From Bacillota bacterium (GTDB lineage: Bacteria > Bacillota_I > Bacilli_A > ML615J-28 > CAG-698), in contig JAEEHM010000060.1 of NCBI GenBank assembly GCA_016280895.1, positions 2,338 to 66,337 of the forward strand: a stretch of 64,000 nt of DNA. Direction: 5' to 3'. Shown here one piece after another: positions 4,068 to 61,535 of the stretch (its first letter is position 1; each line of letters starts with the position of its first letter). Position numbers and translations under genes: made by a program. The notes beneath the pieces were generated by a model. That model was not told the origin of the DNA. It did not search any database and saw only the letters and a program-made list of their open reading frames with translations.

Positions 4068-4134
4068 TAAGTAATAGTTTGAGAATCGTTTAGACGGTTC
4101 TTTTTTTATGTAAAAAATTAAGGAGGAAAACATA

Positions 4135-4611
4135 ATGGCTATTGATATTGTAAAAGGCAGTCACGGTTATGCATTTCCAGCTAAAGTATTAGCTGGAATG
4201 GGTGGCGCTCATCAATTTAATATTACAACAACAGCAAATCATGATAATGGCGAGCTTGTAAATCGTGGTGATTGGAATAGTTTTGACAATTATCTTGAGG
4301 CATCTGTAGCAGCACAGAATTCATTTGCTGGAATCATTCAGCAGGTAAATCCTGATGATTCACATGCATGGTATGTAGAAGTTACAGCTGATACAGACCT
4401 TTTATTCCTTTATAATGCACCAGTTAGTGAATATCCTGAGAAGGAATTCCAAGACCTTTCTCTTTTCTATAACAAGAGTGGTGATGTTGTAAGAGGTTAC
4501 TCACTTCGTAAGGGCGATATTATCATGCTTTCAGATGTATTGTTTGATGGAACGCCTGAAGAAGAGAAAACTCTTACATACAAAAATGGCAAGTATGTAG
4601 TTGCAGAATAA
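4135..4611 (+). CDS. head-module protein (decoration/auxiliary capsid protein?)
   Basis: 158-aa ORF with AAGGAGG SD, immediately upstream of the major capsid gene. No diagnostic motif recognised. Confidence 0.35.
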   Translation: MAIDIVKGSHGYAFPAKVLAGMGGAHQFNITTTANHDNGELVNRGDWNSFDNYLEASVAAQNSFAGIIQQVNPDDSHAWYVEVTADTDLLFLYNAPVSEYPEKEFQDLSLFYNKSGDVVRGYSLRKGDIIMLSDVLFDGTPEEEKTLTYKNGKYVVAE

Positions 4612-34400: not shown

Positions 34401-37400
34401 AAGCTGTTCGAGCTGGTAGAGCTGCTAGTAGTTTTTTGGATGCAATTAAAAATAAATTAAAATATGGATGGGCGCAAAGTATTGCTATGTTTTTGAGTTT
34501 TTATGACATTATAAGATATATTAGAGAAATATCTTCTACTGTCACAGAACTTAATAGTAATTTAATTGAACTTGCAAAGGTATCTGATACAAGCATTAGA
34601 GAACTATATAATGGATTTGATGATTTTGGAAATATTGCAAAAGAAACTGGCGGAACAATAAATGATATTATTAAATCTACTGCTGATTGGGCTAGAAATG
34701 GTTATAATTTGCCCGATTCAAAAGAGTTAGCTCGCTTATCTTCTATTTTTCAAAATATAGGTGATGGTTTATCAGAATCCCAAGCTAATGAATATTTGGT
34801 TTCAATTCTCAAAGGATTTAATCTTGAAGCAAATCAAGCATTAGAGATAATGGATAAAATTAACAATGTTTCAAATAATGCAGCTTCAAGTGTGTCAAAT
34901 ATTGGCGAAGCATTGGAACGTTCGTCATCTTCTTTCGGTGCAGCTAATACAAATTTAAGTGAAGCTATAGCACTTCTTACATCTGCAAATGAAATTCTTC
35001 AATCGCCAGAAGTTGTTGGAACTGCTTTTAAAAGTATGTCTGCTAGATTGCGTTCTTCGACTACCGAATTAGAGGAACTAGGAGAAGAAACAACACTTAC
35101 AACATCAAAATTACGAGCTTTAGTTCAATCTTTGACTGGTGTTGATATTCAAAAAGATGAAAATACATTTAAATCAATTTATGATATTCTACTTCAAATT
35201 GGTGAAAAATGGCAAAATTTAACTGATATAGAGCAAGCAAGTTTATCAGAGGCATTATTTGGAAAGAGAAATTCGCAAGTTGGATTTGCAATTCTAAATA
35301 ATGTCGAAAGATTGCAAGAAATATATGCTCTTGCTGAGAATAGTGCTGGAAGTGCTATGAAAGAGCAGGAAAAATATTTGCAAGGTGTACAGTATCAAAT
35401 TGATTTATTTAAGGCTAGCGTTGAAAATCTTGTAAATGATTTTATGTCTTCTGATGTTTTAAAGAAAATAATTCAAACAGGTACTAAATTTATTGACATA
35501 TTAGATACAATTATTAGCAAACTTGGTGCTATTCCTCCTTTAGTTACAGTAATAGGTACTGCTATAGGAAGTAAATTTAATCCATTATATAAAATATTTT
35601 CTTCTTTTTTATTTCCTCAAACTACGACACCATTTGTTTTTACTGTAGATACTGATATTGGAGCTTTAGCTTCTTTGGGAAAAGTAAAAGAACTAATTAA
35701 TGAATACAATACTAGTTTTTCAAATTTAGAAAGAATAACAACTAATACTCGATTAAGTCATGAAGAATTTATTGCAGAAGTTAATAGAGGAAATCCAGTA
35801 TTGGCTTCTTATTTAAGGATTTTAGGAAGAGATTCTGCGGCAACTTATAGTGCTTATAGACGAGAATTGATTAGAACAACTCTTGCAACTTCTGCATTAA
35901 GAGTTGCAACAATGGCTTTACAAGGTATTATATTTGGCGTTATAACTGCGGGAATTTCAGCTCTTGTTTCTAAGTGGAAAGAATATCATAAAACATCCGA
36001 AAAAATAATTGAAAATGGCGAGAAGGCTCGTCAAACTTTAAAAGATGTAAATAACGAGTTACAAAATCAACAGAAAATTGTATCGGATTCGGCACGCAAA
36101 TTTGCTTTGTTATCTCAAGAAGTAAATCAACTAACTGGTAAAAACATATCTTTATCAGATTCAGATTATGAAGAATTTTTAAGAATAAGTAATGAATTAG
36201 TTGAAGTATTTCCAAGTCTTACTCATCATTATGATGAAAATGGAAATGCAATAGTAGATTTAAGTGGAGATGTTGATACAATTGTTGGTTCTTTACAAAA
36301 TTTGGTAGATGTTGAGAAACAATTAGCTAAAGAAAAAGTTATAGAAAGTTTTGATGATTCTATTGAAGGAGCATTAGAAAAAGATAAAGAATACGCTAAA
36401 GAAATAGCTAAAATTGAAGAAGAAATCTCGCTAAAGAAATATAATATAGAAAAAATACAGTCAGGTTTAAAAAAAGGTGAAGTACAAAGGCAAGATATAA
36501 AAGATTGGGAAAAATTCTTGCTTACGTTGGAAGGACTCAATATTTCTTATAGCATAAATGATTTGCAAGATATTATTACTTTAACTAATCCACTAGATTC
36601 TAACACTATTAAAAATATAGTAAATACATATGATAGTGAATATCAACAATTACTTGATAAATTACAATTGAAAGCTATTGAAAGAAGTAAGGAAGTAAAT
36701 ACGGTTATTGTTGAAACATTAAAAGCATTTTTAGATTATTCAGATATTGATGAAGAATTAAAAACTGCTTTATCAAATATTTTGACAAACTTTAATTTTA
36801 CAGAAGCAGGTTTAGATGAAACTAAAGAAGTTCGTGATTTTATTGAAAATTTAATTGTTCAATTTTCTACTATGCCAAAAGCGCAACAAGAAGCATACGT
36901 TTTAGCTTTTGATTTAAGAACACGTTTTAATAATGATGAAATATCTATTAAAGAATATGAGAAACAATTAAGTAAACTTCTTTTGCTTACTGATAATTTG
37001 TTTTTTGATACTGACCCTGCGAAAAATAAAAAACAAAAACAAGAATTTGTAAAATCTCTTGCCGCTGTTTTTGATTTAGACGTTGATTCTAGTGGTAAAA
37101 TTGTTAATAATGCAGTTGATTCACTAGCTAAAGAATTTCAAAATGCCGGACTTGGGAAAAAAGTATCTAAATCTTTAGCTAAAAGTTTAACTAAGACAGA
37201 ATTAGAAGAAGCTTTGCAATTATCTGATGTTGATTGGAAAGAAATACTTAAAGTTGAAGATGGAGAAAAAACTGTAAAAGATTTTGTATCAATACTAAGA
37301 CATTATCTCAATCAAAAATCATATAAAATTAAACTTGATACTAAAACTATTGAAAATACAACAGATGGTATAAAAGAATTACAATCAACCTATCAATCTT

Positions 37401-39937
37401 TATACGATAAAATGTCAGAAGGTAAGGTCGGAGAAGACCTTGCTTTTTTGATGACTGATATTGAAGCTTTAAAAGCAAAGTTAGGTGACGTATCTTCTTA
37501 TCAAAATATTTGGGATAATTTTTTCCGAACAATGACAGATGGTAATCACACATTTGAAGAAATGCGTGATGCATTAAATGAAGTTCTTTCTGCTTATGTT
37601 AATGCTACTGTTGATTTACAAAATTTTGATGCCGCTGAAGCTAAAGCGTTATCTACTCAACTTCAACTTGCGGGTGTAACTAAGGAATCTGCTGATGCTT
37701 ATGTTCAAGTATATGTTGATAGAGCCGAAGCAGTTCAGTATGCTACAGAAAAGGGTTATGATTTTGTAGCCCAAATAGATAGTGAAGATTTGGCATTTCT
37801 TGAAGAAGCAGAAGCCGCAGGATATAGTAAAGAACAATTAGCTTTATATGCACTTGAAAAACAAATTGCTAATGGATTAGTTATTTCAACTGCTGCTGAT
37901 TGTGAAAATCTTATACAACTTGCAACTGTAGCTGGCGCTACAAGCGACCAATTAGTTAGACTTAATAAACTTAAAGCTCTATTAGCAAATATTCAAACTG
38001 AAATTGATGCTCATCCAAATGGTATTGTCGCTGCTGCGTTAAGTGTATCAAAAGGTTTAGTACAAACTGAATTTGATAATTTAGTTAATGATGTTTACGC
38101 AGATGCTAAAGCAAAAGCTGCTAATTTCAAGTTTAGTGATAAAAAAGGTAATTCTTCTAAATCCGGTGGTGGCGGTTCAAAAGCCGACAAAGAAGAAGAC
38201 CTTTGGAAGAAAGCATACGAAGAAGAATTAAAAGCATTAGACCATCTTCACGAGATGGAACTAATAAGTGATATTCAGTATTACGAAGAACGTGAACGAT
38301 TAAACGATAAATATTTTAAAGACAATGAAAAATATGCAGAAGAATATAATAAAAATCTTGAAGAGATATACAAAGGTTTTCAATCTGCATATAAACAATA
38401 TGTCGATGATATGTCTGATTATTGGAAGAAGTCTTTAGAATCGAATTTAATCGATTTTAAATCATATTGTTCGCAAATGGAAACTATGTTAAATAGTTTG
38501 CATGATGCTGGAAAAATAGATGATGAAACATATTTTACAAAATTAGGTGATTATTATGGTTCTATAATAGAAAACTATGATAAAGCTATTAATGCCGCTC
38601 AAAGAACAATTAAGAAGCGAATTGATGCTTTAAACGATGAAAAAGAAGCTTTAGAAAAAGATTATCAAAATAGAAAAGATTTAATTCAAAGACAAATTGA
38701 TGGAATTAATGAGCAAATCAATGCAACACAGAAGGAAATTGATAAACTTGAAGAAGCAAATAAACAACGTCAAGCGGCATTGGATATGCAAAAAGCTTTA
38801 TATGAACTTAATAGAGCTGAAAATCAACGCCCTGATTATGTGTATAATTCGGAAAAAGGTTTCGTTTATCAAAATCGTGATACTGATATAAAAGCGGCAC
38901 AGGAAGAACTTGATAATCTTCGTTATGAACAACAGATATCAATTTTAGAACGAACAATTACTACTTTAAATGAACAAATTGATAGCCTCAATGAACAGAT
39001 TGATGGTTTGGATGAAGAATTAGATAGATTAACAGATGCTATTGATTCTCAAATTGATAAACTTCAAGAGTATTCTGACAAATGGGGTGAAGTTAGAAAC
39101 AAATATCAAGAAGCTCAAGAAGATATAATTGCTACTGCTATTTGGGGTTCAGATTGGCAGAATGAGATTCTTTCTATGAATGAAAGCATATTGGTTGATT
39201 TTACAAATAATTATACTGATATGCAACAAAAACAGGTTGAGGCAGCGGTTAATGCAGCAAATGCAAAAATAGCAGCTTACAATGCTGAAATTAGAGCTTT
39301 AAATGATTTGAAAGAAGCTCAAAAATCAGCAGAAAAAACGGCTACAAGTAGTGCTGTTGCTAGTTCGACAAATGTTTCTAGTGGAAAAGCCAAAACTACT
39401 ATTCCAAAAGGCGGAAATAAAAATAAAAATCCAAGTCCATCAGACAATAAAGCAATACGTTATGCTTATAAGGTAGGCTCTACTATTCATTATGTATATG
39501 GTTCAGGAACCGATAATGCTTTACCGGGTTATCATGAAATTGCAGAGTCAGGTGATGAAATTGTTCTTGATAACTATGGAAATGCTTATTTGGCAAAAGG
39601 AAGGCAATTGCATCGATTTGAAGGTGGCGAGAAAGTTTATAATGAAAATGAGACTAGAGAATTATTAAGAGGTAAATATTTACCAATTGATTCTCTTTTC
39701 CCAAATTATTCTGATATGCTTTCTAAAATGTCTAATATGCAAATGTCATTTAGTGGAATTGGTAATAGTGTGGTTTCTAAAAAGCCATCTTTGGGTGGAA
39801 ATACTGAAATTACAAATTCATTTACTGTTACTATTGGTGATATAAATGTAAGTGAAGTAAATGATGCTAGTGCTTTAGCTAAAGCAATTACTAACAAATT
39901 ACCAAATGCCTTATTACAAGAATTAAACAGAAAGTAA
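31478..39937 (+). CDS. tail tape measure protein (2819 aa, TTG start)
   Basis: Very long, coiled-coil-rich ORF. The core LAKVSDTSIRELY...TADWARNGYNL...ALERSSSSFGAANTNLSEAIALLTSANEILQSPEVVGTAFKSMSARL matches the TP901-type TMP core. Hydrophobic segments lie mid-protein. Confidence 0.9.
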   Translation: MADFDLTLGIGYNTKQLNDVCDEIEQQLNKIEAQPQIAPDTHKTIIETKRMMRNIVSDVLDTVSKMPVSEVTAGTITKVFNEQFELIGKNINKITSGVETSLEQSFKKQPALKNELLAPLTEKFKELNISAEQYSSIIETVIANADKMGASVRITENLVKQYQEMLLNLEGIKDSLKQVNLRTMSDDFIASIGDIEKAKNVYDELFASLKNIQGAIKTEQGMLSQARNSSEAVVFETRLNELEAERLKTAIKILAIEEERPSWLKEIHSFKNISGLYGQINDYADGYDVLQNKIGETTNKLREFAYSAKTVVAQDLQVGDILNAGAVNTKIELQITTTTEELINQIRQRLAEVQQQIYDATSLVIPIKYVITTNEKDVLSNTERRNLEKNMTKYVQSSKDDVVVDAGNIFADIEKRGVDTANSVANQAIESIQDIFNDNKIDIQFDTSKAIKNLEEAISNKELSTEIDFSKNLEEANERARKLLELFEQMTNQLKEADVIADDVVELKPSKYSSENIVQMTKKALDEAKKSVEELNSYFVLHPVEIQFDAKKSLDNFTNEISKHEYKEQFDIATSLKKAVDYSAKLLTNLNNIQDIDFKTNFITGFDFANMLGNIENITVELASIASILERIQDAKLNQSITFDLKGANETVDKLSDSIEILANELATSINTNTFGDLDTITDNIANKVTKIKNAVNNITIREGVLNSFKTLQESIDVLSNTKLRNFTTFANTIKNLSTVNSKTLKNIFATFKQINPENIDNISIISEALNKLKDELVELDKTSFSGFLKQLESILSNSEALKSLSNIVEKTGTNLNNISRELSNVDASYVNEVTKIENKLELLGRGKNVSKYTSDYVERLDKLNEKIREFNFEVERINNLAPNLVFQSDKQRIEKLVEEIKEMNFQLSETSKKATSPAKENAILKINTFLRESSKLTREERLQLEQLINRLNNPNLSLDEFREIMTLFNNIKSEAVRAGRAASSFLDAIKNKLKYGWAQSIAMFLSFYDIIRYIREISSTVTELNSNLIELAKVSDTSIRELYNGFDDFGNIAKETGGTINDIIKSTADWARNGYNLPDSKELARLSSIFQNIGDGLSESQANEYLVSILKGFNLEANQALEIMDKINNVSNNAASSVSNIGEALERSSSSFGAANTNLSEAIALLTSANEILQSPEVVGTAFKSMSARLRSSTTELEELGEETTLTTSKLRALVQSLTGVDIQKDENTFKSIYDILLQIGEKWQNLTDIEQASLSEALFGKRNSQVGFAILNNVERLQEIYALAENSAGSAMKEQEKYLQGVQYQIDLFKASVENLVNDFMSSDVLKKIIQTGTKFIDILDTIISKLGAIPPLVTVIGTAIGSKFNPLYKIFSSFLFPQTTTPFVFTVDTDIGALASLGKVKELINEYNTSFSNLERITTNTRLSHEEFIAEVNRGNPVLASYLRILGRDSAATYSAYRRELIRTTLATSALRVATMALQGIIFGVITAGISALVSKWKEYHKTSEKIIENGEKARQTLKDVNNELQNQQKIVSDSARKFALLSQEVNQLTGKNISLSDSDYEEFLRISNELVEVFPSLTHHYDENGNAIVDLSGDVDTIVGSLQNLVDVEKQLAKEKVIESFDDSIEGALEKDKEYAKEIAKIEEEISLKKYNIEKIQSGLKKGEVQRQDIKDWEKFLLTLEGLNISYSINDLQDIITLTNPLDSNTIKNIVNTYDSEYQQLLDKLQLKAIERSKEVNTVIVETLKAFLDYSDIDEELKTALSNILTNFNFTEAGLDETKEVRDFIENLIVQFSTMPKAQQEAYVLAFDLRTRFNNDEISIKEYEKQLSKLLLLTDNLFFDTDPAKNKKQKQEFVKSLAAVFDLDVDSSGKIVNNAVDSLAKEFQNAGLGKKVSKSLAKSLTKTELEEALQLSDVDWKEILKVEDGEKTVKDFVSILRHYLNQKSYKIKLDTKTIENTTDGIKELQSTYQSLYDKMSEGKVGEDLAFLMTDIEALKAKLGDVSSYQNIWDNFFRTMTDGNHTFEEMRDALNEVLSAYVNATVDLQNFDAAEAKALSTQLQLAGVTKESADAYVQVYVDRAEAVQYATEKGYDFVAQIDSEDLAFLEEAEAAGYSKEQLALYALEKQIANGLVISTAADCENLIQLATVAGATSDQLVRLNKLKALLANIQTEIDAHPNGIVAAALSVSKGLVQTEFDNLVNDVYADAKAKAANFKFSDKKGNSSKSGGGGSKADKEEDLWKKAYEEELKALDHLHEMELISDIQYYEERERLNDKYFKDNEKYAEEYNKNLEEIYKGFQSAYKQYVDDMSDYWKKSLESNLIDFKSYCSQMETMLNSLHDAGKIDDETYFTKLGDYYGSIIENYDKAINAAQRTIKKRIDALNDEKEALEKDYQNRKDLIQRQIDGINEQINATQKEIDKLEEANKQRQAALDMQKALYELNRAENQRPDYVYNSEKGFVYQNRDTDIKAAQEELDNLRYEQQISILERTITTLNEQIDSLNEQIDGLDEELDRLTDAIDSQIDKLQEYSDKWGEVRNKYQEAQEDIIATAIWGSDWQNEILSMNESILVDFTNNYTDMQQKQVEAAVNAANAKIAAYNAEIRALNDLKEAQKSAEKTATSSAVASSTNVSSGKAKTTIPKGGNKNKNPSPSDNKAIRYAYKVGSTIHYVYGSGTDNALPGYHEIAESGDEIVLDNYGNAYLAKGRQLHRFEGGEKVYNENETRELLRGKYLPIDSLFPNYSDMLSKMSNMQMSFSGIGNSVVSKKPSLGGNTEITNSFTVTIGDINVSEVNDASALAKAITNKLPNALLQELNRK

Positions 39938-46964: not shown

Positions 46965-47975
46965 ATGGGTATTGAAAAAATAAGTGATTCTAATTATCGA
47001 GTAAGAAAAATGGTTAAAGGAAAAAAATATACTTTGAAATTCGACCATAAACCAAGTCAAAAAGAAATTACATTTGCATTAGCAGAAGCATTTGAGGCTA
47101 ATCAAGAGACTTCTGCTAATGCCGGAACAGTTTGTCAATATGCTTTTGATTATATTGAAAAATCAAGAATTAACAAACGTTCGTCCACTACTATTATAAA
47201 CTATCAATCTATTATAAGGAATACTCCTTCTGATTTTCTTACATTTAATTTATTTGATGTAACTCAAACTAATATTCAAAATATGATTGATGAATATTCT
47301 AAAACTCACTCACCTAAAAGTACGAGAAATTTAAATGGTTTTTATAAGGCGGTGTTTAAAGAATATAGACCATCTTTTATTTATAATATTAAACTACCTG
47401 CTAAAAAAAAGAATTTTGAATATCAACCAACGACAAAAGACGTTCAAAGAATTTTAGAATATTCTAAAGATTCAAGATATTATTTGTTTTTAAATTTATC
47501 AGCATTAGGTCTTAGAAGAAGTGAAATTCCTTGTTTATCAAAAAATGATATTGTTAATAACAATACATTAATTATTAATAAAGATTATGTGCTTGATGAA
47601 AATAATAATTATTATATAAAAAGTTCTCCAAAAACAGATGCTACTAATAGAGCAATTTCTATTCCTCAAAATATTGCGGATATGATAAAAGAACATGATG
47701 AAATGTTGTTTACTGGGAATCCTCATACCGTTAATGAATTTTTACACAAAGCTCAAGATGCTTTAAATATTCCAAGATTTAGATTGCATATTTTAAGGCA
47801 TTTTGCCGCTGCTTATTTAATGAAGAAAGGATTTACAGTTGTACAAATAGAGAATTATATGGGATGGGAACATGGGTCTTCTACAATGCAAAAGGTTTAT
47901 GCTTATAACCTTGACCCCGAAGAGTCACAAAAAGATATAGTAACGGCATTTGATGAATTATCGTTTTTGTATTGA
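46965..47975 (+). CDS. int: tyrosine recombinase / phage integrase
   Basis: LGLRRSEI (Arg), HILRHFAAAYLMKKG (HxxR) and a C-terminal ...MQKVYAY (Tyr), with an SAM-like N-terminal domain. AAAGGAGA SD. Confidence 0.9.
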   Translation: MGIEKISDSNYRVRKMVKGKKYTLKFDHKPSQKEITFALAEAFEANQETSANAGTVCQYAFDYIEKSRINKRSSTTIINYQSIIRNTPSDFLTFNLFDVTQTNIQNMIDEYSKTHSPKSTRNLNGFYKAVFKEYRPSFIYNIKLPAKKKNFEYQPTTKDVQRILEYSKDSRYYLFLNLSALGLRRSEIPCLSKNDIVNNNTLIINKDYVLDENNNYYIKSSPKTDATNRAISIPQNIADMIKEHDEMLFTGNPHTVNEFLHKAQDALNIPRFRLHILRHFAAAYLMKKGFTVVQIENYMGWEHGSSTMQKVYAYNLDPEESQKDIVTAFDELSFLY

Positions 47976-48330: not shown

Positions 48331-48573
48331 TTAATCGAGGTCATCTGTTTTTTCAAGAAGCTTTCTTCCTGTTAATCTAGCAATAGCACATACTAATTCT
48401 GTACTAACACCCTTTTTGAATAGATATGAAATTTGAGATTGACTAAGACCAACAGCTTCTGCTAATTGTTGTTGTGTAATACCTTCTGCTCGACATATTT
48501 TTTTACATTTTTTAGTTAAGTCTTTTTTTGCTTGTGCAGTTTTTTTGCATTCAATTAAATTTATTTTAGCCAT
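48331..48573 (-). CDS. HTH DNA-binding protein (XRE-like)
   Basis: The GITQQQLAEAVGLSQSQISYLFKKG helix-turn-helix. 80 aa. Confidence 0.65.
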   Translation of the reverse strand: MAKINLIECKKTAQAKKDLTKKCKKICRAEGITQQQLAEAVGLSQSQISYLFKKGVSTELVCAIARLTGRKLLEKTDDLD

Positions 48574-52027: not shown

Positions 52028-55000
52028 TTTCTACTATGCTCCATTTAGATAATATTTTTTCTTTTTCATCAATTTGGTAATAGTTATTATTTTCGTTATC
52101 ATACTTCCATTTTTTCTCATCAAAACAATCAATAGTTTTAATAATTTGACCTTCGCAAAATGGTTTATTAGCAAATAACTTAGAGCGTACTCTAACTATT
52201 TCATTAGTTCCATCATTTAATCTATAAAGATATACGGTTCTTTTTTGTTTTCCTTCTATTTTTTGAACAAACGCATAACAGGGTTGTATTTCGGGAATTG
52301 TAATTTGTATATAACCATAATGTATTTGTTGATATGATATTTTTTCAATAAGACTAGTTTTGGGATAATTAATAACATTGCATATATTTTTGATTAATTC
52401 TAAGCTATCAAAGTCTTTAAACATTTTCTCTGTTTTATTTTGTGAACATTTTTGAAAAGATTCTACTGGCAATTTTAATTCATATATTTTGTCAATCTTA
52501 AATTGTTTTTTCCCGTAAATTAATGTAAAGATACGAGTATATTCCAACAATTGATTTATTTCACCAAATTCAGAAAAGAAATCTAGCTTAATTAATACTT
52601 CTAATTGTCTAGAATTAACTGTTGTTTTATTTTTTATATCACTGAGTAAATCAATAAATGTAATGTAATTATTTTTAATTCCTAATTCATATAATTCATC
52701 TGCGATTTTAATATTAAGATATTTAATTGAAGCAATACCTTTATATATTGAATTTGTTTTTTTATCGCATGAATAATAGGCTTGAGATTTTCCAAATTTA
52801 ATTGGCAAAATATTGATTCTAACTTTTTTTGCATATTGTGTAATTGCAAGTGTTTTGTCTTCTTTATCCCGAAAAATATTAAAAGAAGCAGTTAAAAACT
52901 CAAGTGGATGATAATAACGTAAATAACCACATATATATCCAATGCAACTATAACTATCTGAATGATTCCACGAAAAAGCATATGCACTTGCATCTTTAAT
53001 ACCTTGTTCAATACTTGGAAACATTTCTTCTAATCTATTGATTGGTTGATGATAAACAGTATTTGAATGTTCAATAAATCTTTTATGTATTTCATCCACA
53101 AATTGCTCAGTACCATATTTTTTAGCGACACCTCTACGAACTGTATCACTTTCTGCATCTGAGTATCCACAAAATTTTACTAGAAATTGCATTATATCTT
53201 CTTGCATTGTTATATGACCGAATGTACTAGCCAAATAATCGTCAAATTCTTTAAAATTTGTTTTTAAAATCTCACCGTTTGCAATGTTATCTCTAAAGGA
53301 GGCACATCCCGGTCTGATTAAACCATTTCCAAATGAAAACCATTTGATATACGAAAAGTTTGTATTGTTTTTTTTTGCAATTTGCAAAGTTTTATCAGAC
53401 ATAAATCTTTTTAAATATGCTTGTGCGCTATCACTTTCCCATTGAAAAATTAAAGTAGTATCATCACGGATAGATTTCCAAACATTTTCATCATTAAGGT
53501 CAGTATTATCCGGTATCAATCGCTCTATATTAAGTAGTTTACATGTATCATTTATTATACCTATATTATCTAGACCAAGAATATCTAGCTTAACATACAT
53601 AAGCGCATCTAATTCTTTCATATTAAGCATTGATACTGGATATTTTGAAGTTGCTAACGAACATAAGCCTATATCTTCGTATAAGTTTTTATCACTAACT
53701 AAAACCCCACTAGGATGAGTTCCAATTGAAACGACTGTTCCATTAACTATATCTACATATTCAAATAATTCAGGATATTTTTTTCTTAGAGTTGTTTCTT
53801 CATTTTCAACTCTATTACATATATCATTAACTTCTTTCAATGAAATATTGAGCGCTCTTCCCACATCACGAATCGCCCCTTTAAGTGCTATCGTATTGAA
53901 TGTGATTATTTCGGCTGATTGAATTTTGGGAAGATTCATATGGTCGTGTAATAAAAAGTATTTAACTTTATCTCTATCTTCGCTAGAATAATCCGTATCA
54001 ATATCGGCATTAGTTACTCTACTAGGATTCATGAATCTAAAAAAATTTAAACCAAATTTAAGGCTGTCCATTTTAGTGATATCTAGTGCATATGCAATTT
54101 CAGAACCCGACACAGAGCCTCGACCATATCCACATTGAATGCCCTGAGACTTTTCCCATTCTCGCAAATAAGTTTGCAATAACATAAAATCAATTGATTG
54201 TGTTTTTTTATAAACCTCAAGTTCTTCATTAATAACTTGTTTTATTTTTTCTTTTGAATATCTTTTTTTCAAATATGGATGTTTTTTATATGCTTCGTTT
54301 ATCTTTTGCTTAAAAGTTTCTTCCGGATTGTCATAAATATGTGGATATTTAGTATTTGTATCTAATTTATATTCTTCTATGCTATCCACTATTTTGTTGG
54401 TATTTTCAATAGCAGCATAATAATCTTCCCCGCTTAAAGCTCCTTGCTCTTTGAATGCCAATACCAATTCATCATATGTTTTATATATTAAATCCCAGTC
54501 GTTTTCATTTTCAAAGTATATATTTTTACTTTTTTGAAGTATTTCTCTTCCTTTTGCATGTTGCTCATTTAATGAATGTGTGTCTGTACAAGCAACTAAT
54601 TTTAAATTGTATTTATGTGAAAGTTTGGCAAGATATTTGTTGAATTCTATTTGTTCTAAACAATTATGATGTTGTACTTCTAAATAACATCTATCTTTAT
54701 TGGTTATAATAAATTTTATAAATCTTTTCTTTAATCCATTTGTTCCTTTTGATAGAATACCAGCTAAACAAGCTGTTAATATGATGATATTATCAGAAGT
54801 GTTTATTAATTCTTCAAATGTAATTCTTGGTGAGTAATAATAATGATTACTTTCTCCATAACAAATAACATCTGCTCTATTAAATGATGAGGAAATTAAT
54901 CTATTTAATTCTTTAAATCCTTCATAATTTTTGGCTAATAAAATACAATGATAATTGTCACGTATTTTCTCATTTAAAGATTCGGTAATATATGCTTCAA

Positions 55001-55214
55001 TACCATGAATATATTTAAATCCAGCTTTTTCTAATGCAAGTTTCTTTTTATACCAGTTAAAAATATTACCATGTTCAGTAAAAGTAATATTGTATATTCC
55101 ATCTTCTTCTTTTGAAGCCCGTTCAATATATTGTTCATATTTTGTTACACTGTCTATATTTGTAATACCACTAGATAATTCTGTATGACAATGTAATATA
55201 GAATATTTTTGCAC
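52020..55214 (-). CDS. DNA polymerase III alpha-type replicative polymerase (PHP + Pol IIIa core), GTG start
   Basis: N-terminal PHP motif ILHCHTELSSG...GIEAY and palm motif NADIDTDYSSEDRDKV. 1064 aa. AGGGGGA SD before the GTG. Confidence 0.9.
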   Translation of the reverse strand: MQKYSILHCHTELSSGITNIDSVTKYEQYIERASKEEDGIYNITFTEHGNIFNWYKKKLALEKAGFKYIHGIEAYITESLNEKIRDNYHCILLAKNYEGFKELNRLISSSFNRADVICYGESNHYYYSPRITFEELINTSDNIIILTACLAGILSKGTNGLKKRFIKFIITNKDRCYLEVQHHNCLEQIEFNKYLAKLSHKYNLKLVACTDTHSLNEQHAKGREILQKSKNIYFENENDWDLIYKTYDELVLAFKEQGALSGEDYYAAIENTNKIVDSIEEYKLDTNTKYPHIYDNPEETFKQKINEAYKKHPYLKKRYSKEKIKQVINEELEVYKKTQSIDFMLLQTYLREWEKSQGIQCGYGRGSVSGSEIAYALDITKMDSLKFGLNFFRFMNPSRVTNADIDTDYSSEDRDKVKYFLLHDHMNLPKIQSAEIITFNTIALKGAIRDVGRALNISLKEVNDICNRVENEETTLRKKYPELFEYVDIVNGTVVSIGTHPSGVLVSDKNLYEDIGLCSLATSKYPVSMLNMKELDALMYVKLDILGLDNIGIINDTCKLLNIERLIPDNTDLNDENVWKSIRDDTTLIFQWESDSAQAYLKRFMSDKTLQIAKKNNTNFSYIKWFSFGNGLIRPGCASFRDNIANGEILKTNFKEFDDYLASTFGHITMQEDIMQFLVKFCGYSDAESDTVRRGVAKKYGTEQFVDEIHKRFIEHSNTVYHQPINRLEEMFPSIEQGIKDASAYAFSWNHSDSYSCIGYICGYLRYYHPLEFLTASFNIFRDKEDKTLAITQYAKKVRINILPIKFGKSQAYYSCDKKTNSIYKGIASIKYLNIKIADELYELGIKNNYITFIDLLSDIKNKTTVNSRQLEVLIKLDFFSEFGEINQLLEYTRIFTLIYGKKQFKIDKIYELKLPVESFQKCSQNKTEKMFKDFDSLELIKNICNVINYPKTSLIEKISYQQIHYGYIQITIPEIQPCYAFVQKIEGKQKRTVYLYRLNDGTNEIVRVRSKLFANKPFCEGQIIKTIDCFDEKKWKYDNENNNYYQIDEKEKILSKWSIVEND

Positions 55215-55242
55215 TTAATATATCCCCCTATAATTGTTATAT

Positions 55243-55285
55243 AAATAAAAAACCCTCTGTATCTATATATTCTAGATACAGAAGG
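55243..55285 (-). terminator. rho-independent terminator (minus strand), just upstream of the polymerase start
   Basis: The minus strand reads CCTTCTGTATCTA-GAATATA-TAGATACAGAGGG followed by TTTTTTATTT. The single imperfect pair is G-U on the minus strand but C-A on the plus strand. Confidence 0.65.
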
Positions 55286-55305
55286 TTTATATATAATTAT
55301 AATTG

Positions 55306-55314
55306 TGCTATAAT
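55306..55314 (+). promoter_or_regulatory. extended -10 promoter of toxin cassette 1
   Basis: TGcTATAAT. The predicted +1 (about 55322) coincides with the start of the 5' complementary arm. Confidence 0.5.
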
Positions 55315-55397
55315 CTCTCTTGGGTATTACTAACAGGCGGTTGCCTCTTCACAGAAGAGGTTTTCACCTCTTCGAGTATTCAAGGAGGTGATGTAAA

Positions 55398-55487
55398 ATG
55401 GTTTCTTATAATGAATTGTTTTTATTTGGTACGATGCTAATTAGCTTTGCAGCCCTCATTATTACAATTTGTAATAAAAAGAAATAA
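55398..55487 (+). CDS. type I toxin candidate 1 (29-aa hydrophobic peptide, BsrG/holin-like-toxin style)
   Basis: MVSYNELFLFGTMLISFAALIITICNKKK. GGAGG (55384-55388) lies 9 nt upstream. Opposite strand to all neighbouring genes; paralogs at 56899 and 57227. Confidence 0.6.
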   Translation: MVSYNELFLFGTMLISFAALIITICNKKK

Positions 55488-55564
55488 CCGCCCCGGTCTG
55501 TAAACTAGGCGGTTATCTTTTCATAATCACTTATGTAGGCAACCAATGTTGGTAATGCCTTTCT
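55472..55564 (-). ncRNA. candidate antitoxin antisense RNA 1 (ends approximate)
   Basis: Predicted start about 7 nt after the minus-strand -10 (55571-55576). Hairpin AACCGCC/GGCGGTT (55486-55514) is followed on the minus strand by ATTTCTTTTTATT. Overlaps the toxin 3' UTR and last codons. Confidence 0.4.
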
Positions 55565-55570
55565 TTTATT

Positions 55571-55599
55571 ATAATATCATTTAAATATTATTATTGCAA
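55571..55599 (-). promoter_or_regulatory. convergent promoter for antisense RNA 1
   Basis: Minus strand: TTGCAA (55599-55594), a 17-nt spacer, then TATTAT (55576-55571). Confidence 0.5.
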
Positions 55600-55606
55600 A
55601 TTTTAT

Positions 55607-55774
55607 CTATTCAGACACTATTTCCACCGAATTTTTAATAATCTTAAAGTCGAACCAGTTCGGTTCGTTTTCCTGTTCAATATATAATAATCCCTTATTA
55701 ATAGCTTCTTCATAACTATCTGCTAAAACTTTAACGTGGGTTGTTCCTTTAATATTCATTTCCCATTGTTTCAT
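55607..55774 (-). CDS. small hypothetical protein (55 aa, below cutoff)
   Basis: MKQWEMNIKGTTHVKVLADSYEEAINKGLLYIEQENEPNWFDFKIIKNSVEIVSE, with AAAGGGGA SD. Confidence 0.45.
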   Translation of the reverse strand: MKQWEMNIKGTTHVKVLADSYEEAINKGLLYIEQENEPNWFDFKIIKNSVEIVSE

Positions 55775-55804
55775 TATATTAATCCCCTTTCAAACAATTT
55801 ATTA

Positions 55805-56707
55805 TTAATCGTCTTTATTTTCGCTATCATATTGTCCATATTTAATATATGTATCTTGTCTTTTATCATATGCAACAGTCTTATTTTCTTTTCTTCTATC
55901 TTCATGGACATCTAATTTTTTATAATGCTTTTCATATAATTCTTGGACATCTGAATTTCCACCTAAAAGATTTATATAAGAATAATAATCAATTTCAATT
56001 TTTTCTCGTTCTTCGGGTGTTACGAATCCATTGTTTAAACAATTATACAAAGTTTTTTTCAAACTAATTTTTTTATCATTCTTTTCTGATTCTTGTAATT
56101 TTGCTAACAAATCAACTGTTTCATTACATTTATCAGTAATAACATTTATTTTACTCTCATGTTCTTCTTGAACTTTTTTAATGTCATTAATAGTATTTAC
56201 AATTATTGGTCTAAAATCATTTGAATTAACTATATCGTGATTAATTGCTCCTTTAATTTCCGCTATATCTTGAATTGTATTAACTGTATGAGATTCTGAT
56301 AAATTTACTTTATTAAATATTGCATCTGTTTCTTTTGGAATTAATATCCAATCATCAATACAAATTGCTATGATTTGACCTAATAACGGTACAAACAACA
56401 TATTTAAAATTATGTTTCCACTTGTTGTATTAATCATTAATAAAAAAATGTATGAAACAATAAATGAAATAATAATTTCCAAACCGATATGATTTAATAT
56501 TATTCCTCTTTGTTTAATAAATTTTTCCTCTTTAAAAAATTTTATTTTTGCACTTTTAAAAATTAATAAAGTTCTTAGAAAAAACATTATAAGTAATGAA
56601 ATACATAATTCAATTGATACTGTTAAAGCAACTGTTCCTGAATTTGTTATTTTTCCCATATGTTCAAGAAAAGAAAAAATTTTTTCAATAGTCATTTTTG
56701 TCACCAT
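55805..56707 (-). CDS. membrane protein of unknown function (3-4 TM N-terminal half, soluble coiled C-terminal half)
   Basis: 300-aa ORF with hydrophobic helices in residues about 25-120. Flanked on both sides by the toxin cassettes. Confidence 0.5.
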   Translation of the reverse strand: MVTKMTIEKIFSFLEHMGKITNSGTVALTVSIELCISLLIMFFLRTLLIFKSAKIKFFKEEKFIKQRGIILNHIGLEIIISFIVSYIFLLMINTTSGNIILNMLFVPLLGQIIAICIDDWILIPKETDAIFNKVNLSESHTVNTIQDIAEIKGAINHDIVNSNDFRPIIVNTINDIKKVQEEHESKINVITDKCNETVDLLAKLQESEKNDKKISLKKTLYNCLNNGFVTPEEREKIEIDYYSYINLLGGNSDVQELYEKHYKKLDVHEDRRKENKTVAYDKRQDTYIKYGQYDSENKDD

Positions 56708-56740
56708 CCAAAGTTTTTGTGTCTCTCTATATATATTCTC

Positions 56741-56773
56741 AAAACAAAAAAAAAGATACCTTCACAGGTATCT
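56741..56773 (-). terminator. rho-independent terminator (minus strand)
   Basis: The minus strand reads AGATACC-TGTGAA-GGTATCT followed by TTTTTTTTTGTTTT. Overlaps the -35 of the cassette-2 toxin promoter. Confidence 0.65.
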
Positions 56774-56789
56774 AAATGTTTGCTATAAT
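56761..56789 (+). promoter_or_regulatory. promoter of toxin cassette 2
   Basis: TTCACA, a 17-nt spacer, then TATAAT with an extended -10 TG (56781-56782). The predicted +1 (about 56797) is the start of the 5' arm. Confidence 0.55.
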
Positions 56790-56898
56790 CGTATACGAGC
56801 TACCAAGATGGTAGGCGGTTAGCCTCTAACTAGGGTACTGATAACCCTATTCAAGATAATTCGTCTTAGAGCGAAAATACTTGTTGAGGTGAATGTTT

Positions 56899-56988
56899 AT
56901 GAGCGATTATGAACTCTTATCATTGATATTAATGATTCTTGCAATCATTATTCCATTGATTATTGAACTAATAAAAGCAAATAGATAA
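56899..56988 (+). CDS. type I toxin candidate 2 (29 aa)
   Basis: MSDYELLSLILMILAIIIPLIIELIKANR. GAGGTG (56886-56891) lies 7 nt upstream. Confidence 0.55.
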   Translation: MSDYELLSLILMILAIIIPLIIELIKANR

Positions 56989-57071
56989 GCCGCCCTTGTC
57001 TGGAAAATATAGGCGGCTTTCTAAAGCTAATTTTGTTTTTCTGGCTAACCGTCTACTGGTAGCTCTTTTGT
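56970..57071 (-). ncRNA. candidate antitoxin antisense RNA 2 (ends approximate)
   Basis: Starts downstream of the minus-strand TATTAT (57083-57078). Hairpin GCCGCC/GGCGGC (56989-57017) is followed on the minus strand by a U-rich stretch. Confidence 0.4.
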
Positions 57072-57077
57072 ATATAT

Positions 57078-57106
57078 ATAATAATCTTAATAACTAAACT
57101 TGTCAA
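57078..57106 (-). promoter_or_regulatory. convergent promoter for antisense RNA 2
   Basis: Minus strand: TTGACA (57106-57101), a 17-nt spacer, then TATTAT (57083-57078). Confidence 0.6.
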
Positions 57107-57112
57107 ATCATA

Positions 57113-57142
57113 TTGCAAAACCATTATTTTGTTTGTTATAAT
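57113..57142 (+). promoter_or_regulatory. promoter of toxin cassette 3
   Basis: TTGCAA (57113-57118), an 18-nt spacer, then TATAAT (57137-57142) with an extended -10 TG. The predicted +1 (about 57150) is the start of the 5' arm. Confidence 0.55.
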
Positions 57143-57226
57143 CTTGCATGAGCTACCAAGATGGTAGGCGGTTAGCCCTCGCCAGAGGGTGTCTATCCCC
57201 TCTGAATATAAAAGGGGGTGATGCTA

Positions 57227-57313
57227 TTGGTTACACATGGTGAAATGTTTACATATACACTAGTTTTAATCGGTTTAGCAACATTGGTTTACAATGTGAC
57301 AAAAAAGAAATAG
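57227..57313 (+). CDS. type I toxin candidate 3 (28 aa, TTG start)
   Basis: (M)VTHGEMFTYTLVLIGLATLVYNVTKKK. A TTG start 8 nt after GGGGG gives an N-terminus that aligns with copy 1 (MV[ST][YH]xE[LM]F). The ATG at 57221 is too close to the SD. Confidence 0.5.
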   Translation: MVTHGEMFTYTLVLIGLATLVYNVTKKK

Positions 57314-57387
57314 CCGCCCTATCCTGATAAGCTAGGCGACTATTGTTCCTATTTATCGGGCTAACCGTCTATCGGTAGCTCTTTTGT
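57300..57387 (-). ncRNA. candidate antitoxin antisense RNA 3 (ends approximate)
   Basis: Starts downstream of the minus-strand TATTAT (57399-57394). The minus-strand hairpin AGUCGCC/GGCGGCU is followed by AUUUCUUUUUU. The same hairpin has a C-A mismatch on the + strand. Confidence 0.4.
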
Positions 57388-57393
57388 ATTTCT

Positions 57394-57421
57394 ATAATAT
57401 CATAATTATTTAATTTTGCAA
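57394..57421 (-). promoter_or_regulatory. convergent promoter for antisense RNA 3
   Basis: Minus strand: TTGCAA (57421-57416), a 16-nt spacer, then TATTAT (57399-57394). Confidence 0.5.
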
Positions 57422-57423
57422 AT

Positions 57424-57723
57424 CTATTTTATGTCTCCATTCATTTTAGCATTAAATAAGGCCCCTAAATATTCTTGTGGATTATCTTGGGCTTTTTCCA
57501 TAGCAGCTCTTTCAGTTTTTAATGTATTAAGTGTATTTTTATAAGTAGGTAAATTCGCAACTTTTAATCTCATATCAGATATTTCTTCTTGAGTGCAAAT
57601 ACCTTTCGCAATTAGTAGCTGTAAAATTACTTGTACGTCCATAGCTATTTTTAGCATAGCTTCTTGTTCTGATATTCGAGACAGAGCTTTGTCAGGATGG
57701 TAATAATCGTTATTGTTTAGCAT
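57424..57723 (-). CDS. hypothetical protein (99 aa)
   Basis: Helical ORF immediately downstream of the AlbA_2 gene on the minus strand. Confidence 0.4.
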   Translation of the reverse strand: MLNNNDYYHPDKALSRISEQEAMLKIAMDVQVILQLLIAKGICTQEEISDMRLKVANLPTYKNTLNTLKTERAAMEKAQDNPQEYLGALFNAKMNGDIK

Positions 57724-57794
57724 AAAGTAATTTCCTCCCGACGATATTTTCTATGGCTTTTTCATTTGATTTCTCCATTATGCCCCCTTATATT

Positions 57795-59066
57795 CTATTT
57801 TAACCATTCTTCACCATTTCTTGAATTTATATTATACTTCGTTGCTCTAGCCTGTCCTTCAACAGCAATTATATTTCGCTCAACTAACGAGTTTAGTATC
57901 TCTATCGCTTTATGACGTTCAAGCTCCATTGCATCTTGCACCTCTGTTCTTGATGTCCATCCGTGCTCTTTTAAATAGTCATATATTTTCTGCTCAATCG
58001 CATCTAGAACTATGCTTTCAACTGTAGGCAGGATAACCGTTATCGAGTTTTCATATACATCAAACTTCGGTTGCGCTATAAAATCTTTGTACAACTCCTT
58101 AATTCTAAGAATTCCTGTTCCAAATTTTTCTATCAGTTTTAATCTAAAAAACACATCTGCTAAAATCGGATTTCTTAATGATGAATACTGACCGTTTATA
58201 AATTCTTCTCTAGTTATTCCGTTTGGGAGTCCACCCGGGGAAATAACCTCAATGCAATCCGAGAACATTTTAACCCTAATATCCGCATTGATATTCCACC
58301 GCCTATGAACCATGGCGTTTGCTATAGCTTCTCTGAATGCTTCTCTAGGTACTTTTTCAAAATTTTCACGACGTGTCCCTTCTATGCGCTCCACAACATA
58401 ATAATCTTCAAACATTTTTTCAATTTCATCAAACTGCTTTAAAATAGAGCCTTCTTTAACAGTAACTCGCTTTTCCAATTCGTTTATCGACTCTCCAAAC
58501 TTAACCGCATCTATCCCCACACCTTCTAAACTATCAGACAGCAAATACGCGGCCAGATTATATTGGTTCTTCGCATTATAGAGCCGTAACGTTTTTAGTA
58601 TATCTAACGTCAATTTTTCTATTTCTATGACTTGCTTTAATTTCTTTTCTAGATATTCAAATGTCAAATCCTGTTTGTTAGATTTGGTCTCTTCAAAATC
58701 TATATTTTGTCCTTCGATAATTAAATTTTTTAATTCATATGTATCAATTTCTACAGTGGATGTATCGCTTCTTTTATAAGCTTTGCTTTCGTAAAAATAC
58801 GGCTTATTCATCCCTTCAAATACATTTAGAATCAATATATTTCCATCTATATCTAATTCATAGTTTGGAACCGGACGTATATTCCCATTAATCATCTCCT
58901 CTACTCGAAGTTTGTTGGCGCCCAATTCGTCAATCCCAACTTTGTTCCCCTCGTCATCTATTCCAAAATATATTTTTCCACCAGAGTAATTGGCGAAGGC
59001 AGACACGGTCTTTAAAAAACTCTTACTGATTTTTTCTTTGTATTCAGTATTTTTGTTTTCAGGCAT
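57795..59066 (-). CDS. AlbA_2 (Schlafen-like) + HATPase_c_4 + wHTH protein ('RecG-like ATP-binding' family)
   Basis: The N-terminal ENKNTEYKEKI...LKTVSAFANYSGGKIYFGIDDEG fits the AlbA_2 pattern. RNPILADVFFRLKLIEKFGTGILRI fits HATPase_c_4. The C-terminus looks like a winged helix. Confidence 0.75.
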   Translation of the reverse strand: MPENKNTEYKEKISKSFLKTVSAFANYSGGKIYFGIDDEGNKVGIDELGANKLRVEEMINGNIRPVPNYELDIDGNILILNVFEGMNKPYFYESKAYKRSDTSTVEIDTYELKNLIIEGQNIDFEETKSNKQDLTFEYLEKKLKQVIEIEKLTLDILKTLRLYNAKNQYNLAAYLLSDSLEGVGIDAVKFGESINELEKRVTVKEGSILKQFDEIEKMFEDYYVVERIEGTRRENFEKVPREAFREAIANAMVHRRWNINADIRVKMFSDCIEVISPGGLPNGITREEFINGQYSSLRNPILADVFFRLKLIEKFGTGILRIKELYKDFIAQPKFDVYENSITVILPTVESIVLDAIEQKIYDYLKEHGWTSRTEVQDAMELERHKAIEILNSLVERNIIAVEGQARATKYNINSRNGEEWLK

Positions 59067-61256: not shown

Positions 61257-61457
61257 TTAAAGTCCTAAAAGCCAATTAGCATCTATATTTAATTCTTTGC
61301 ATAACAAAGTAACATGATTTATATTAGGAACAGATTGCCCATTAAGCCAACGTGAAATCGTTGGTTGTTTGACACAAACTATATCTGCTAATTTAACTTC
61401 TGAAATATTATTATTAACCATATAATCTTGTAATCTATCCGAAAATAGTGAATTCAT
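61257..61457 (-). CDS. XRE-family HTH regulator
   Basis: Start taken at MNSLFSDRL (AAAGGA SD). Contains the ISEVKLADIVCVKQPTISRWLNGQSVP helix-turn-helix. Confidence 0.65.
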   Translation of the reverse strand: MNSLFSDRLQDYMVNNNISEVKLADIVCVKQPTISRWLNGQSVPNINHVTLLCKELNIDANWLLGL

Positions 61458-61535
61458 ATTAATCCTTTCTATTGCTAATTTCATGTAATAGTATATTCTG
61501 TATTCAATAAAAAAAGACACTTAAAAAAGCGTCTT

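Follow-up and report, generated by a model that had tools for sequence, protein, structure and literature searches.

What do three short, similar stretches of plus-strand DNA encode when they occupy the gaps between genes in a minus-strand module for replication and recombination? The question was raised by positions 2,338 to 66,337 of contig JAEEHM010000060.1 (assembly GCA_016280895.1, Bacillota bacterium), the 64,000-nt stretch of DNA that was analysed here and is called the window. A preliminary description, made from the letters alone, had placed three paralogous cassettes on the plus strand, and these were confirmed at the same places by their open reading frames (ORFs), their promoters and an alignment of the three cassettes (c1, c2 and c3) with a mean column identity of 71%. 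We consider it likely that the cassettes are type I toxin-antitoxin modules similar to BsrG/SR4, belonging to the class in which convergent genes overlap at their 3' ends (BsrG/SR4, TxpA/RatA and BsrE/SR5). The ORFs, both promoters, a long helix between the two ends of the toxin mRNA (P1), a stop-codon hairpin (SL3), the sequestration of the Shine-Dalgarno sequence (SD) and the conservation of these parts across relatives were established computationally.

The same order of parts was found in each cassette: a TG-extended -10 promoter, a structured leader of about 75-100 nt, an SD, an ORF of 28-29 codons, the stop-codon hairpin, a spacer, and a weak hairpin with a U-tract, directly beyond which a convergent promoter is located on the minus strand. 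The extents of the cassettes are as follows.

About 55286-55599, plus strand: cassette c1
About 56761-57106, plus strand: cassette c2
About 57113-57421, plus strand: cassette c3

The sequence AGGCGGTTRSCC occurs five times in the 64-kb window, all within the cassettes, against an expectation of 0.03, and an identical 28-nt 5' arm is shared by c2 and c3. No fourth copy of the cassette was found in the 64-kb window.

The promoters and ORFs from which the toxin mRNAs would be transcribed and translated are as follows.

55286-55314, plus strand: c1 toxin promoter, TTTATA-17-TGcTATAAT, 10/12
56761-56789, plus strand: c2 toxin promoter, TTCACA-17-TGcTATAAT, 11/12
57113-57142, plus strand: c3 toxin promoter, TTGCAA-18-TGtTATAAT, 10/12
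55398-55487, plus strand: c1 toxin ORF, 29 aa, MVSYNELFLFGTMLISFAALIITICNKKK
56899-56988, plus strand: c2 toxin ORF, 29 aa, MSDYELLSLILMILAIIIPLIIELIKANR, with ATG at 56899, 7 nt past GAGGTG
57227-57313, plus strand: c3 toxin ORF, 28 aa, (M)VTHGEMFTYTLVLIGLATLVYNVTKKK, with a TTG start 7 nt past GGGGGTG

All three TG-extended -10 promoters of the preliminary description were recovered, at 10-11 of 12, together with its hydrophobic ORFs of 28-29 codons with a basic tail, and the start codons proposed there are those with correct SD spacing. An upstream in-frame ATG of c2 (56893) was ruled out as the start, being too close to the SD, while the TTG start of c3 is aligned with the ATG of a homologue (L004). 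Read from their sequence, the peptides show the general traits of Hol_Tox (25-40 aa, a single hydrophobic helix, a polar N-terminus MxxYExL and a basic tail), with MVTHGEM in place of the Y-E motif in c3; the tail is K-rich in c1 and c3 and is KANR in c2. A two-codon mini-ORF (ATG TAA, 55391-55396) overlaps the end of the c1 SD and lies 2 nt upstream of the toxin start.

How would such mRNAs be kept silent? The full-length predicted mRNAs of the three cassettes fold with z = -6.3 to -8.0, and the folds contain P1, which was absent from the preliminary description and in which the first ~25 nt of each predicted mRNA pair with the last ~25 nt. The P1 duplexes reach -33 to -44 kcal/mol, compared with -5 to -12 for the arms alone as local hairpins, and the arms of c1 pair with each other even though they differ in sequence from those of c2 and c3.

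55322-55345, plus strand: c1 P1 5' arm, duplex with the 3' arm at -32.8 kcal/mol
56797-56824, plus strand: c2 P1 5' arm, GAGCTACC...GGCGGTTAGCC, duplex at -41.4 kcal/mol
57150-57177, plus strand: c3 P1 5' arm, identical to the c2 arm, duplex at -43.6 kcal/mol
55538-55575, plus strand: c1 P1 3' arm and putative terminator, local hairpin at -9.6 kcal/mol followed by UUUCUUUUAUU
57043-57073, plus strand: c2 P1 3' arm and putative toxin terminator, seen in the folds
57359-57389, plus strand: c3 P1 3' arm and putative toxin terminator, local hairpin at -11.8 kcal/mol

In these models the 3' arm with its U-tract looks like a transcription terminator that would switch to the long helix after release of the RNA. 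The toxin terminator hairpin and U-tract claimed by the preliminary description were seen in the folds of all three cassettes; they are weak, and none of the three toxin 3' hairpins was flagged by the terminator scan. A local 5' hairpin, CUACC...GGUAG, was examined as the conserved structure in place of P1 and rejected: in the GCGUUGCC relatives the 3' arm GGCAACGC matches perfectly and the local GGUAG pairs only by wobble, so P1 is favoured.

The second layer of silencing is placed at the SD, and SL3 covers the last codons together with the stop codon.

55344-55392, plus strand: c1 switch in the 5' untranslated region (UTR), CCUCUUC / GAAGAGG / CCUCUUC / AAGGAGG (anti-SD and SD)
55478-55521, no strand assigned: c1 SL3, stop-codon hairpin and antisense terminator, core 55498-55486 flagged on the minus strand
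56983-57022, no strand assigned: c2 SL3, stop-codon hairpin and antisense terminator, weaker U-tract
57305-57345, no strand assigned: c3 SL3, stop-codon hairpin and antisense terminator

The alternative pairing of CCUC, GAGG, CCUC and SD proposed earlier was retained for c1 and c3; c2 uses another, weaker segment as its anti-SD. The probability of being unpaired, P(unpaired), is 0.01-0.2 for the SDs of the window in the free mRNA, in the mRNA with the antisense target held open and in the nascent leader (0.01-0.09 for c1 in the free, antisense-bound and nascent states). In every relative (described below) the SD pairs with an upstream C-rich anti-SD, either as a minimal hairpin past the 5' arm or in the four-element form of c1 and c3. 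The toxin mRNA is thus modelled as closed by the 5'-3' helix with its SD sequestered, and this predicted sequestration is claimed to be constitutive; since P(unpaired) is low in all states, no antisense-induced change of translation is claimed.

What would act on the closed mRNA? In silico, each cassette carries a putative convergent antisense gene with its own promoter and terminator, overlapping the 3' end of the toxin gene.

55571-55599, minus strand: c1 antisense promoter, TTGCAA-17-TATTAT, 9/12, -10 ending 33 nt from the arm start
57078-57106, minus strand: c2 antisense promoter, TTGACA-17-TATTAT, 11/12, -10 ending 35 nt from the arm start
57394-57421, minus strand: c3 antisense promoter, TTGCAA-16-TATTAT, 9/12, -10 ending 35 nt from the arm start
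55473-55564, minus strand: c1 predicted antisense RNA, ~92 nt, z = -5.6
56975-57071, minus strand: c2 predicted antisense RNA, ~97 nt, z = -2.8
57299-57387, minus strand: c3 predicted antisense RNA, ~90 nt, z = -3.8

The predicted antisense RNAs, about 90-100 nt long, fold as a 5' hairpin followed by a terminator hairpin and U-tract. As had been described, the Lys codons of c1 and c3 give the U-tract in their complement; the tract of c2 is weaker.

Whether this architecture is more than a peculiarity of one window was judged from relatives, which were found by the exact 15-mer GGTAGGCGGTTAGCC from the 5' arm in viral contigs (49 loci) and in species-representative genomes (at least 120 loci). 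Among the matches listed, about half of the loci have the complete layout, the rest being chance matches in unrelated phyla, and the statistics given below were obtained from 95-102 non-identical cassettes among the matches listed. The true members belong mostly to Lachnospiraceae, Oscillospiraceae, Eubacterium, Acetatifactor, Roseburia and Acutalibacteraceae, with some in Negativicutes, and several loci are tandem. Members were also seen on contigs assigned outside Firmicutes, namely L065 (a metagenome-assembled genome labelled Bacteroides sp.), L087 (Segatella copri, two tandem copies) and L120 (Synergistaceae); faulty binning, contigs of phage origin or genuine spread could account for these. 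A 14-mer scan for relatives with the c1-type arm gave only chance matches (0/120 with the 3' arm and SL3 context), so the c1 subtype is without relatives. The cassettes belong to a large, uncatalogued RNA family that is common in gut Clostridia and their phages, and a literature search turned up no account of systems of this kind in Lachnospiraceae or allied gut Clostridia.

The preliminary description had suggested a covariation check on homologous cassettes, and both helices were found to covary. On 26 sequences 95.5% of the P1 cells pair, compared with at most 50% in slid registers; in the outer helix of P1, 5 of the 9 pairs are changed on both sides (34 cells), and the covariation score was reached by 0/500 shuffles. 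Compensatory examples are GAGCUACC/GGUAGCUC, GCGUUGCC/GGCAACGC and GGACUACC/GGUAGUCC. SL3, which lies outside the search pattern, has 5 pairs with double changes, again matched by 0/500 shuffles. Since its stem extends into the Lys/Arg codons, these codons serve three roles, as peptide tail, mRNA stem and antisense U-tract.

Structure signals of such strength would also be expected if the elements were non-coding (structured RNA, bidirectional terminators or insulators) and the small ORFs accidental. We regard this as barely credible on the coding evidence. The frame ending at the SL3 stop has at least 20 codons in 91/95 relatives and the other two frames are mostly closed, so that the small ORF, on whose conservation the preliminary description had made its reading depend, is kept. 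In the same 91/95 relatives, ORFs of 20-45 codons combine an SD, a hydrophobic core and a K/R tail; the start is SD-linked in 90/92 and at least two K/R are present among the last five residues in 89/92. Variation is in excess at third codon positions in one peptide class, and peptide profile scores lie far over those of shuffles.

The antisense promoter is conserved as well. A score of at least 10/12 was obtained in 62/97 relatives, 26 of them perfect, compared with 1/97 on the other strand or in shuffled sequence. The antisense -10 ends 34-38 nt from the 3' arm start in 67/91 relatives, and the 33 nt of c1 is adjacent to this mode; a second mode at 58-62 nt is due to members with an extra terminator hairpin, in which the antisense promoter lies ~24 nt further out. 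Such an extra GC-rich hairpin past the P1 3' arm, bsrG-like, is seen in L017 (7385-7681) and L024 (4287-4582). The sense -10 elements cluster ~20-23 nt ahead of the 15-mer and a few nt short of where pairing begins, at a position equivalent to that in c1.

These figures bear on the idea that the minus-strand promoters of the window are ordinary phage promoters feeding the polymerase gene and the gene of a 300-aa protein, their overlap with the toxin 3' UTR being incidental. Both genes lie downstream of the cassettes on the minus strand and have no recognisable promoter, as this idea would have it. The fixed distance from promoter to 3' arm in 67/91 relatives holds in many unrelated contexts, a conserved covarying terminator follows within ~90 nt of the promoter, and further strong terminators stand ahead of the next gene in the window; we consequently hold the idea to be very improbable. 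Terminator-like sites number 5 in the region against 0.6 expected, and the scan contained the extra minus-strand terminators that had been reported beyond c1 and c2.

55250-55288, minus strand: terminator between c1 and the polymerase gene, strong, 16-bp stem and T-run
56754-56773, minus strand: terminator between c2 and the 300-aa gene, 8-bp stem and T8

That they insulate the downstream genes from antisense read-through is plausible but unproven, and a problem for it is that neither the polymerase gene nor the 300-aa gene has a visible promoter of its own behind the terminator. On the minus strand the terminators directly precede the SD/start of the DnaE-type polymerase gene (55214-55288) and of the 300-aa membrane-protein gene (56707-56773). 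As the space behind them is too short for a sigma-70-type promoter, read-through or antitermination is needed, or the hairpins are attenuators.

To which peptides are the products related? A family profile was built as a hidden Markov model from 24 peptides of the scaffold relatives, none of them from the window, with 500 composition-preserving shuffles of each tested peptide as control. The scores were 30.1 bits for c1 (shuffle maximum 16.9), 29.4 for c3 (7.4), 19.6 for c2 (8.9) and 21.3 for BsrG (12.0), which points to a resemblance of the window peptides to family members in residue order beyond composition; the c2 peptide is close to MSDFEMLYLVLTVISIIMPLVIALINSKK of L075. Hol_Tox (PF16935, gathering cutoff 23.3 bits) was the only Pfam family matched by the scaffold peptide set, with 8 of the 19 peptides at E<=0.01, a best E of 2.9e-10 and, among the matches listed, three scores above the cutoff, at 36.8, 26.7 and 26.4 bits. 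BsrG itself reaches 34.5 bits, and TxpA is likewise a solid member. The likeness to BsrG and 'holin-like toxin' peptides suggested earlier is therefore borne out by the family profile and by the 8/19 relatives, and not by the window peptides on Pfam, which stay below the cutoff. A relationship to Fst was not upheld: no Pfam, NCBIfam or Rfam match was obtained, and an Fst sequence scored 1.8 bits on the family profile, inside its shuffle range.

Two further peptide classes were found on the same RNA chassis, MDILGLIAVLSFGLTCFGIGY..KTQK and ME(Y/Q)xTIITLVLI..IKK (21-24 aa). Loci with these further classes include L007, L010, L017, L024, L026, L065 and L077, and L091, L100, L109, L114 and L123. 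Neither class scored above shuffles on the profile of the MxxYE class, and two peptides of the KTQK class were scanned against Pfam with no meaningful match. In the KTQK class 27/33 third positions are variable compared with 6/33 second positions, a count that is biased because the set was picked by peptide pattern.

The nearest known system is bsrG/SR4 of Bacillus subtilis SPbeta. Structure probing showed that P1 of bsrG mRNA is formed by nt 1-35 together with nt 232-262 (PMC3834814), and that the SD is located in a 4-bp GC helix (PMC3834814). SR4 binds the 3' part of bsrG, opens P1 and promotes RNase III-dependent decay (PMC3834814). The bsrG/SR4 layout named in the preliminary description was reproduced in the cassettes, including P1, which that description lacked. 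Shared features are the prophage location, an own sigma-A-type promoter, the long 5'-3' helix P1, the SD in a short GC-rich anti-SD hairpin (CCCCU/AGGGG, almost identical in c3), the peptide start MxxYE and end KKK, and a convergent antisense RNA overlapping the toxin 3' end. In SPbeta DNA, too, a hairpin contains the stop codon and forms, in its complement, the antisense terminator, for which the Lys codons (KKK) give the U-tract. The differences are that no RNA sequence similarity or common motif with bsrG was detectable; that bsrG has a separate terminator SL4, whereas here the P1 3' arm would itself be the terminator and only a minority of relatives have an extra hairpin; that SR4 has 183 nt with a non-complementary 5' part, whereas the antisense RNAs here would have ~90-100 nt and start at the toxin mRNA end; that BsrG has 38 aa, compared with 28-29 aa here; and that the tightening of the SD helix induced by SR4 is not predicted here.

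Other systems share parts of the design. txpA/RatA (B. subtilis skin) and EF3263 (Enterococcus faecalis) belong to the Pfam family of many scaffold relatives and have a convergent antisense RNA over the 3' UTR. TxpA, in contrast, has 59 aa, while the 27-aa peptide of EF3263 with its antisense RNA of ~110 nt (PMC2887945) is near the window cassettes in both sizes. SprG/SprF (Staphylococcus aureus) has the 3'-overlapping convergent layout; SprG peptides are longer than the window peptides, and the sole link was one scaffold-set peptide that weakly matches NCBIfam PepG1. SprG is regarded as TxpA-related (PMC8594479). In hok/sok and AapA/IsoA, long-distance 5'-3' pairing keeps the full-length mRNA inert, and co-transcriptional metastable structures have been proposed to act against premature translation (PMC8594479). 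The inert full-length mRNA closed by 5'-3' pairing is what these systems have in common with the cassettes; their antisense RNAs, however, act on the 5' region and on translation initiation, 3' processing is required for activation, the peptides show no relationship to those here, and the hosts are Gram-negative and of another phylum.

Several points weigh against reading the cassettes as BsrG/SR4-like modules. All RNA ends, sense and antisense, are model predictions. The convergent promoters had been called near-consensus, which is generous for c1 and c3, with only 9/12 (c2 has 11/12). An effect of antisense binding on SD accessibility, as in bsrG, was not supported, the SD being equally sequestered with or without antisense RNA in the thermodynamic models. 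The inner P1 helix shows no variation, which follows from the use of the exact 15-mer of the 5' arm as search anchor. Nothing meaningful was returned by Rfam at E<=10 for positions 54000-59000 of the window (only junk matches to miRNA and snoRNA families), nor over the cassettes of 15 related loci at the gathering threshold (one tRNA only); with no match to Rfam, including its Bacillus, Enterococcus and Staphylococcus type I families, there is no homology at the RNA level to characterised systems. On Pfam all three window peptides missed the Hol_Tox cutoff (c1 11.9 bits, E = 0.21; c2 and c3 no match), and on NCBIfam no toxin was matched by them, the sole match being a sub-threshold one of c3 to ComI. 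Finally, some small hydrophobic peptides with antisense RNAs proved non-toxic on testing, among them YhzE-2 in B. subtilis (PMC2887945).

The case of YhzE-2 also speaks for small membrane peptides under antisense control whose job is not self-poisoning, the RNA architecture serving tight low-level expression; such peptides might inhibit a host process in the manner of ComI, modulate lysis timing or holin activity, or act in superinfection exclusion. The c3 peptide and three scaffold-set peptides match NCBIfam ComI weakly, the Pfam label of Hol_Tox is 'putative holin-like', and at least three dissimilar peptide classes on one chassis could mean diverse functions. The ComI matches, however, are far under the cutoff (15.6 vs 55 bits), and the validated toxins BsrG and TxpA are solid Hol_Tox members. 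Silencing in several layers (P1, anti-SD and a dedicated antisense RNA) is a hallmark of genes with a harmful product, and multiple prophage paralogues are typical of type I toxin-antitoxin loci. A role other than poisoning is hence judged unlikely.

For the cassettes as BsrG/SR4-like toxin-antitoxin modules, the following course may be proposed, in which we infer the transcript ends, the RNase III decay, the toxicity and the biological role. A promoter of host type would produce an mRNA of 240-275 nt for a single-helix membrane peptide of 28-29 aa. This mRNA would be nearly untranslatable in two ways, by SD/anti-SD pairing and by P1, which would close the molecule and bury its 5' end, while the 3' arm of P1 would double as terminator in the form of a local hairpin with U-tract. 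The convergent promoter at the end of the U-tract would produce an antisense RNA of ~90-100 nt. This RNA would be complementary to the entire 3' UTR of the toxin mRNA and to its final few codons; it would end at the complement of SL3, and there the Lys codons of the toxin would furnish the U-tract. Pairing of sense and antisense RNA would open P1 and form a long duplex that RNase III may cut, destroying the toxin mRNA, by analogy with bsrG/SR4 and txpA/RatA. If the element or the antisense supply were lost, the more stable, closed toxin mRNA would outlast the antisense RNA and the peptide would damage the membrane. By the same analogy, which extends to RNase III decay, toxicity and role, three copies expressed from a prophage would most likely be addiction or host-control modules.

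A further possibility, which we put forward tentatively and with some doubt, is that the RNA chassis (the P1 arms, SL3 and the convergent promoter), not the toxin, is the conserved unit, and that its strands exchange in order during transcription. The at least three peptide classes on the chassis have no detectable mutual similarity, so toxins may be swapped or diverge freely. Each mRNA has two copies of GGCGGUUA, one in the 5' arm and one in the SL3 3' strand, and two of its complement, one in the SL3 5' strand and one in the 3' arm; from this an ordered co-transcriptional strand exchange is predicted. In mRNAs cut just past the stop codon the 5' arm is predicted to pair with the post-stop CCGCC in all three cassettes, and the same pairing was obtained in 97% of 95 relatives (median 7.5 pairs), compared with 19% with the segment shuffled. 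The 5' arm would clamp the post-stop CCGCC, be displaced by the 3' strand of SL3 and be captured by the 3' arm. With such an ordered exchange, the mRNA is predicted never to be open to ribosomes during its synthesis.

The locus itself is part of a temperate phage or prophage of a low-GC gut bacterium, as follows from an integrase-like and two repressor-like helix-turn-helix (HTH) proteins encoded in the window.

46965-47975, plus strand: tyrosine-integrase-like protein, phrog_1 match, E = 1.5e-42
48331-48573, minus strand: HTH repressor-like protein
61257-61520, minus strand: HTH repressor-like protein

The module in whose gaps the cassettes lie encodes a PD-(D/E)XK nuclease, an AlbA_2/ATPase protein, a DnaE-type polymerase and an ERCC4 nuclease. 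For the polymerase, identity to deposited phages does not exceed 49%, the best matches being a Clostridioides phage-plasmid and Thomasclavelia phages, and an exact-sequence look-up gave no identical record for the neighbouring 300-aa protein. With blastn the whole region had no match among GenBank phages at 1e-5; c3 alone, at E<=10, matched two unannotated human-gut 'Bacteriophage sp.' records, and among plasmids only short matches were obtained, one on a Lachnospira eligens megaplasmid. In the structural module a single ORF of 2819 aa (31478-39937, plus strand) presumably encodes a tape-measure or tail protein.

A syntenic viral contig (L014) retains the flanking 99-aa gene (93% identity, tblastx match) and the 300-aa gene. 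With the same neighbours on either side, it carries a single cassette in place of c2 and c3; the upstream part is c2-like, the downstream part is c3-like, the peptide is unlike both, and the RNA arms are conserved. This is the pattern that a tandem duplication or its collapse would leave. An AlbA_2/Schlafen protein with HATPase_c_4 (57795-59066, minus strand; PHROG label 'DNA helicase') adjoins c3 in the window. It is absent from L014, where an unrelated 180-aa ORF (3663-4205) occupies the slot, and the position beside the toxin cassettes is a variable one for accessory genes.

In conclusion, the cassettes are probably new members of the known BsrG/SR4 type of system, and their RNA family is uncatalogued. 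With them the experimentally studied bsrG/SR4 design would reach into temperate phages, and also into chromosomes, of gut Lachnospiraceae, Oscillospiraceae and their relatives, groups whose type I repertoire is all but uncharted. Covariation among more than 100 natural variants supports the 5'-3' helix as well as a hairpin that would be coding sequence, mRNA structure and antisense terminator at once, and the RNA family is a good system for asking how toxin mRNAs stay silent during and after transcription. For annotation, the 15-mer and its complement are a simple finder of unannotated toxin genes of 21-35 codons. The three copies inside a prophage replication module, beside a variable accessory slot, suggest addiction or host-control functions.

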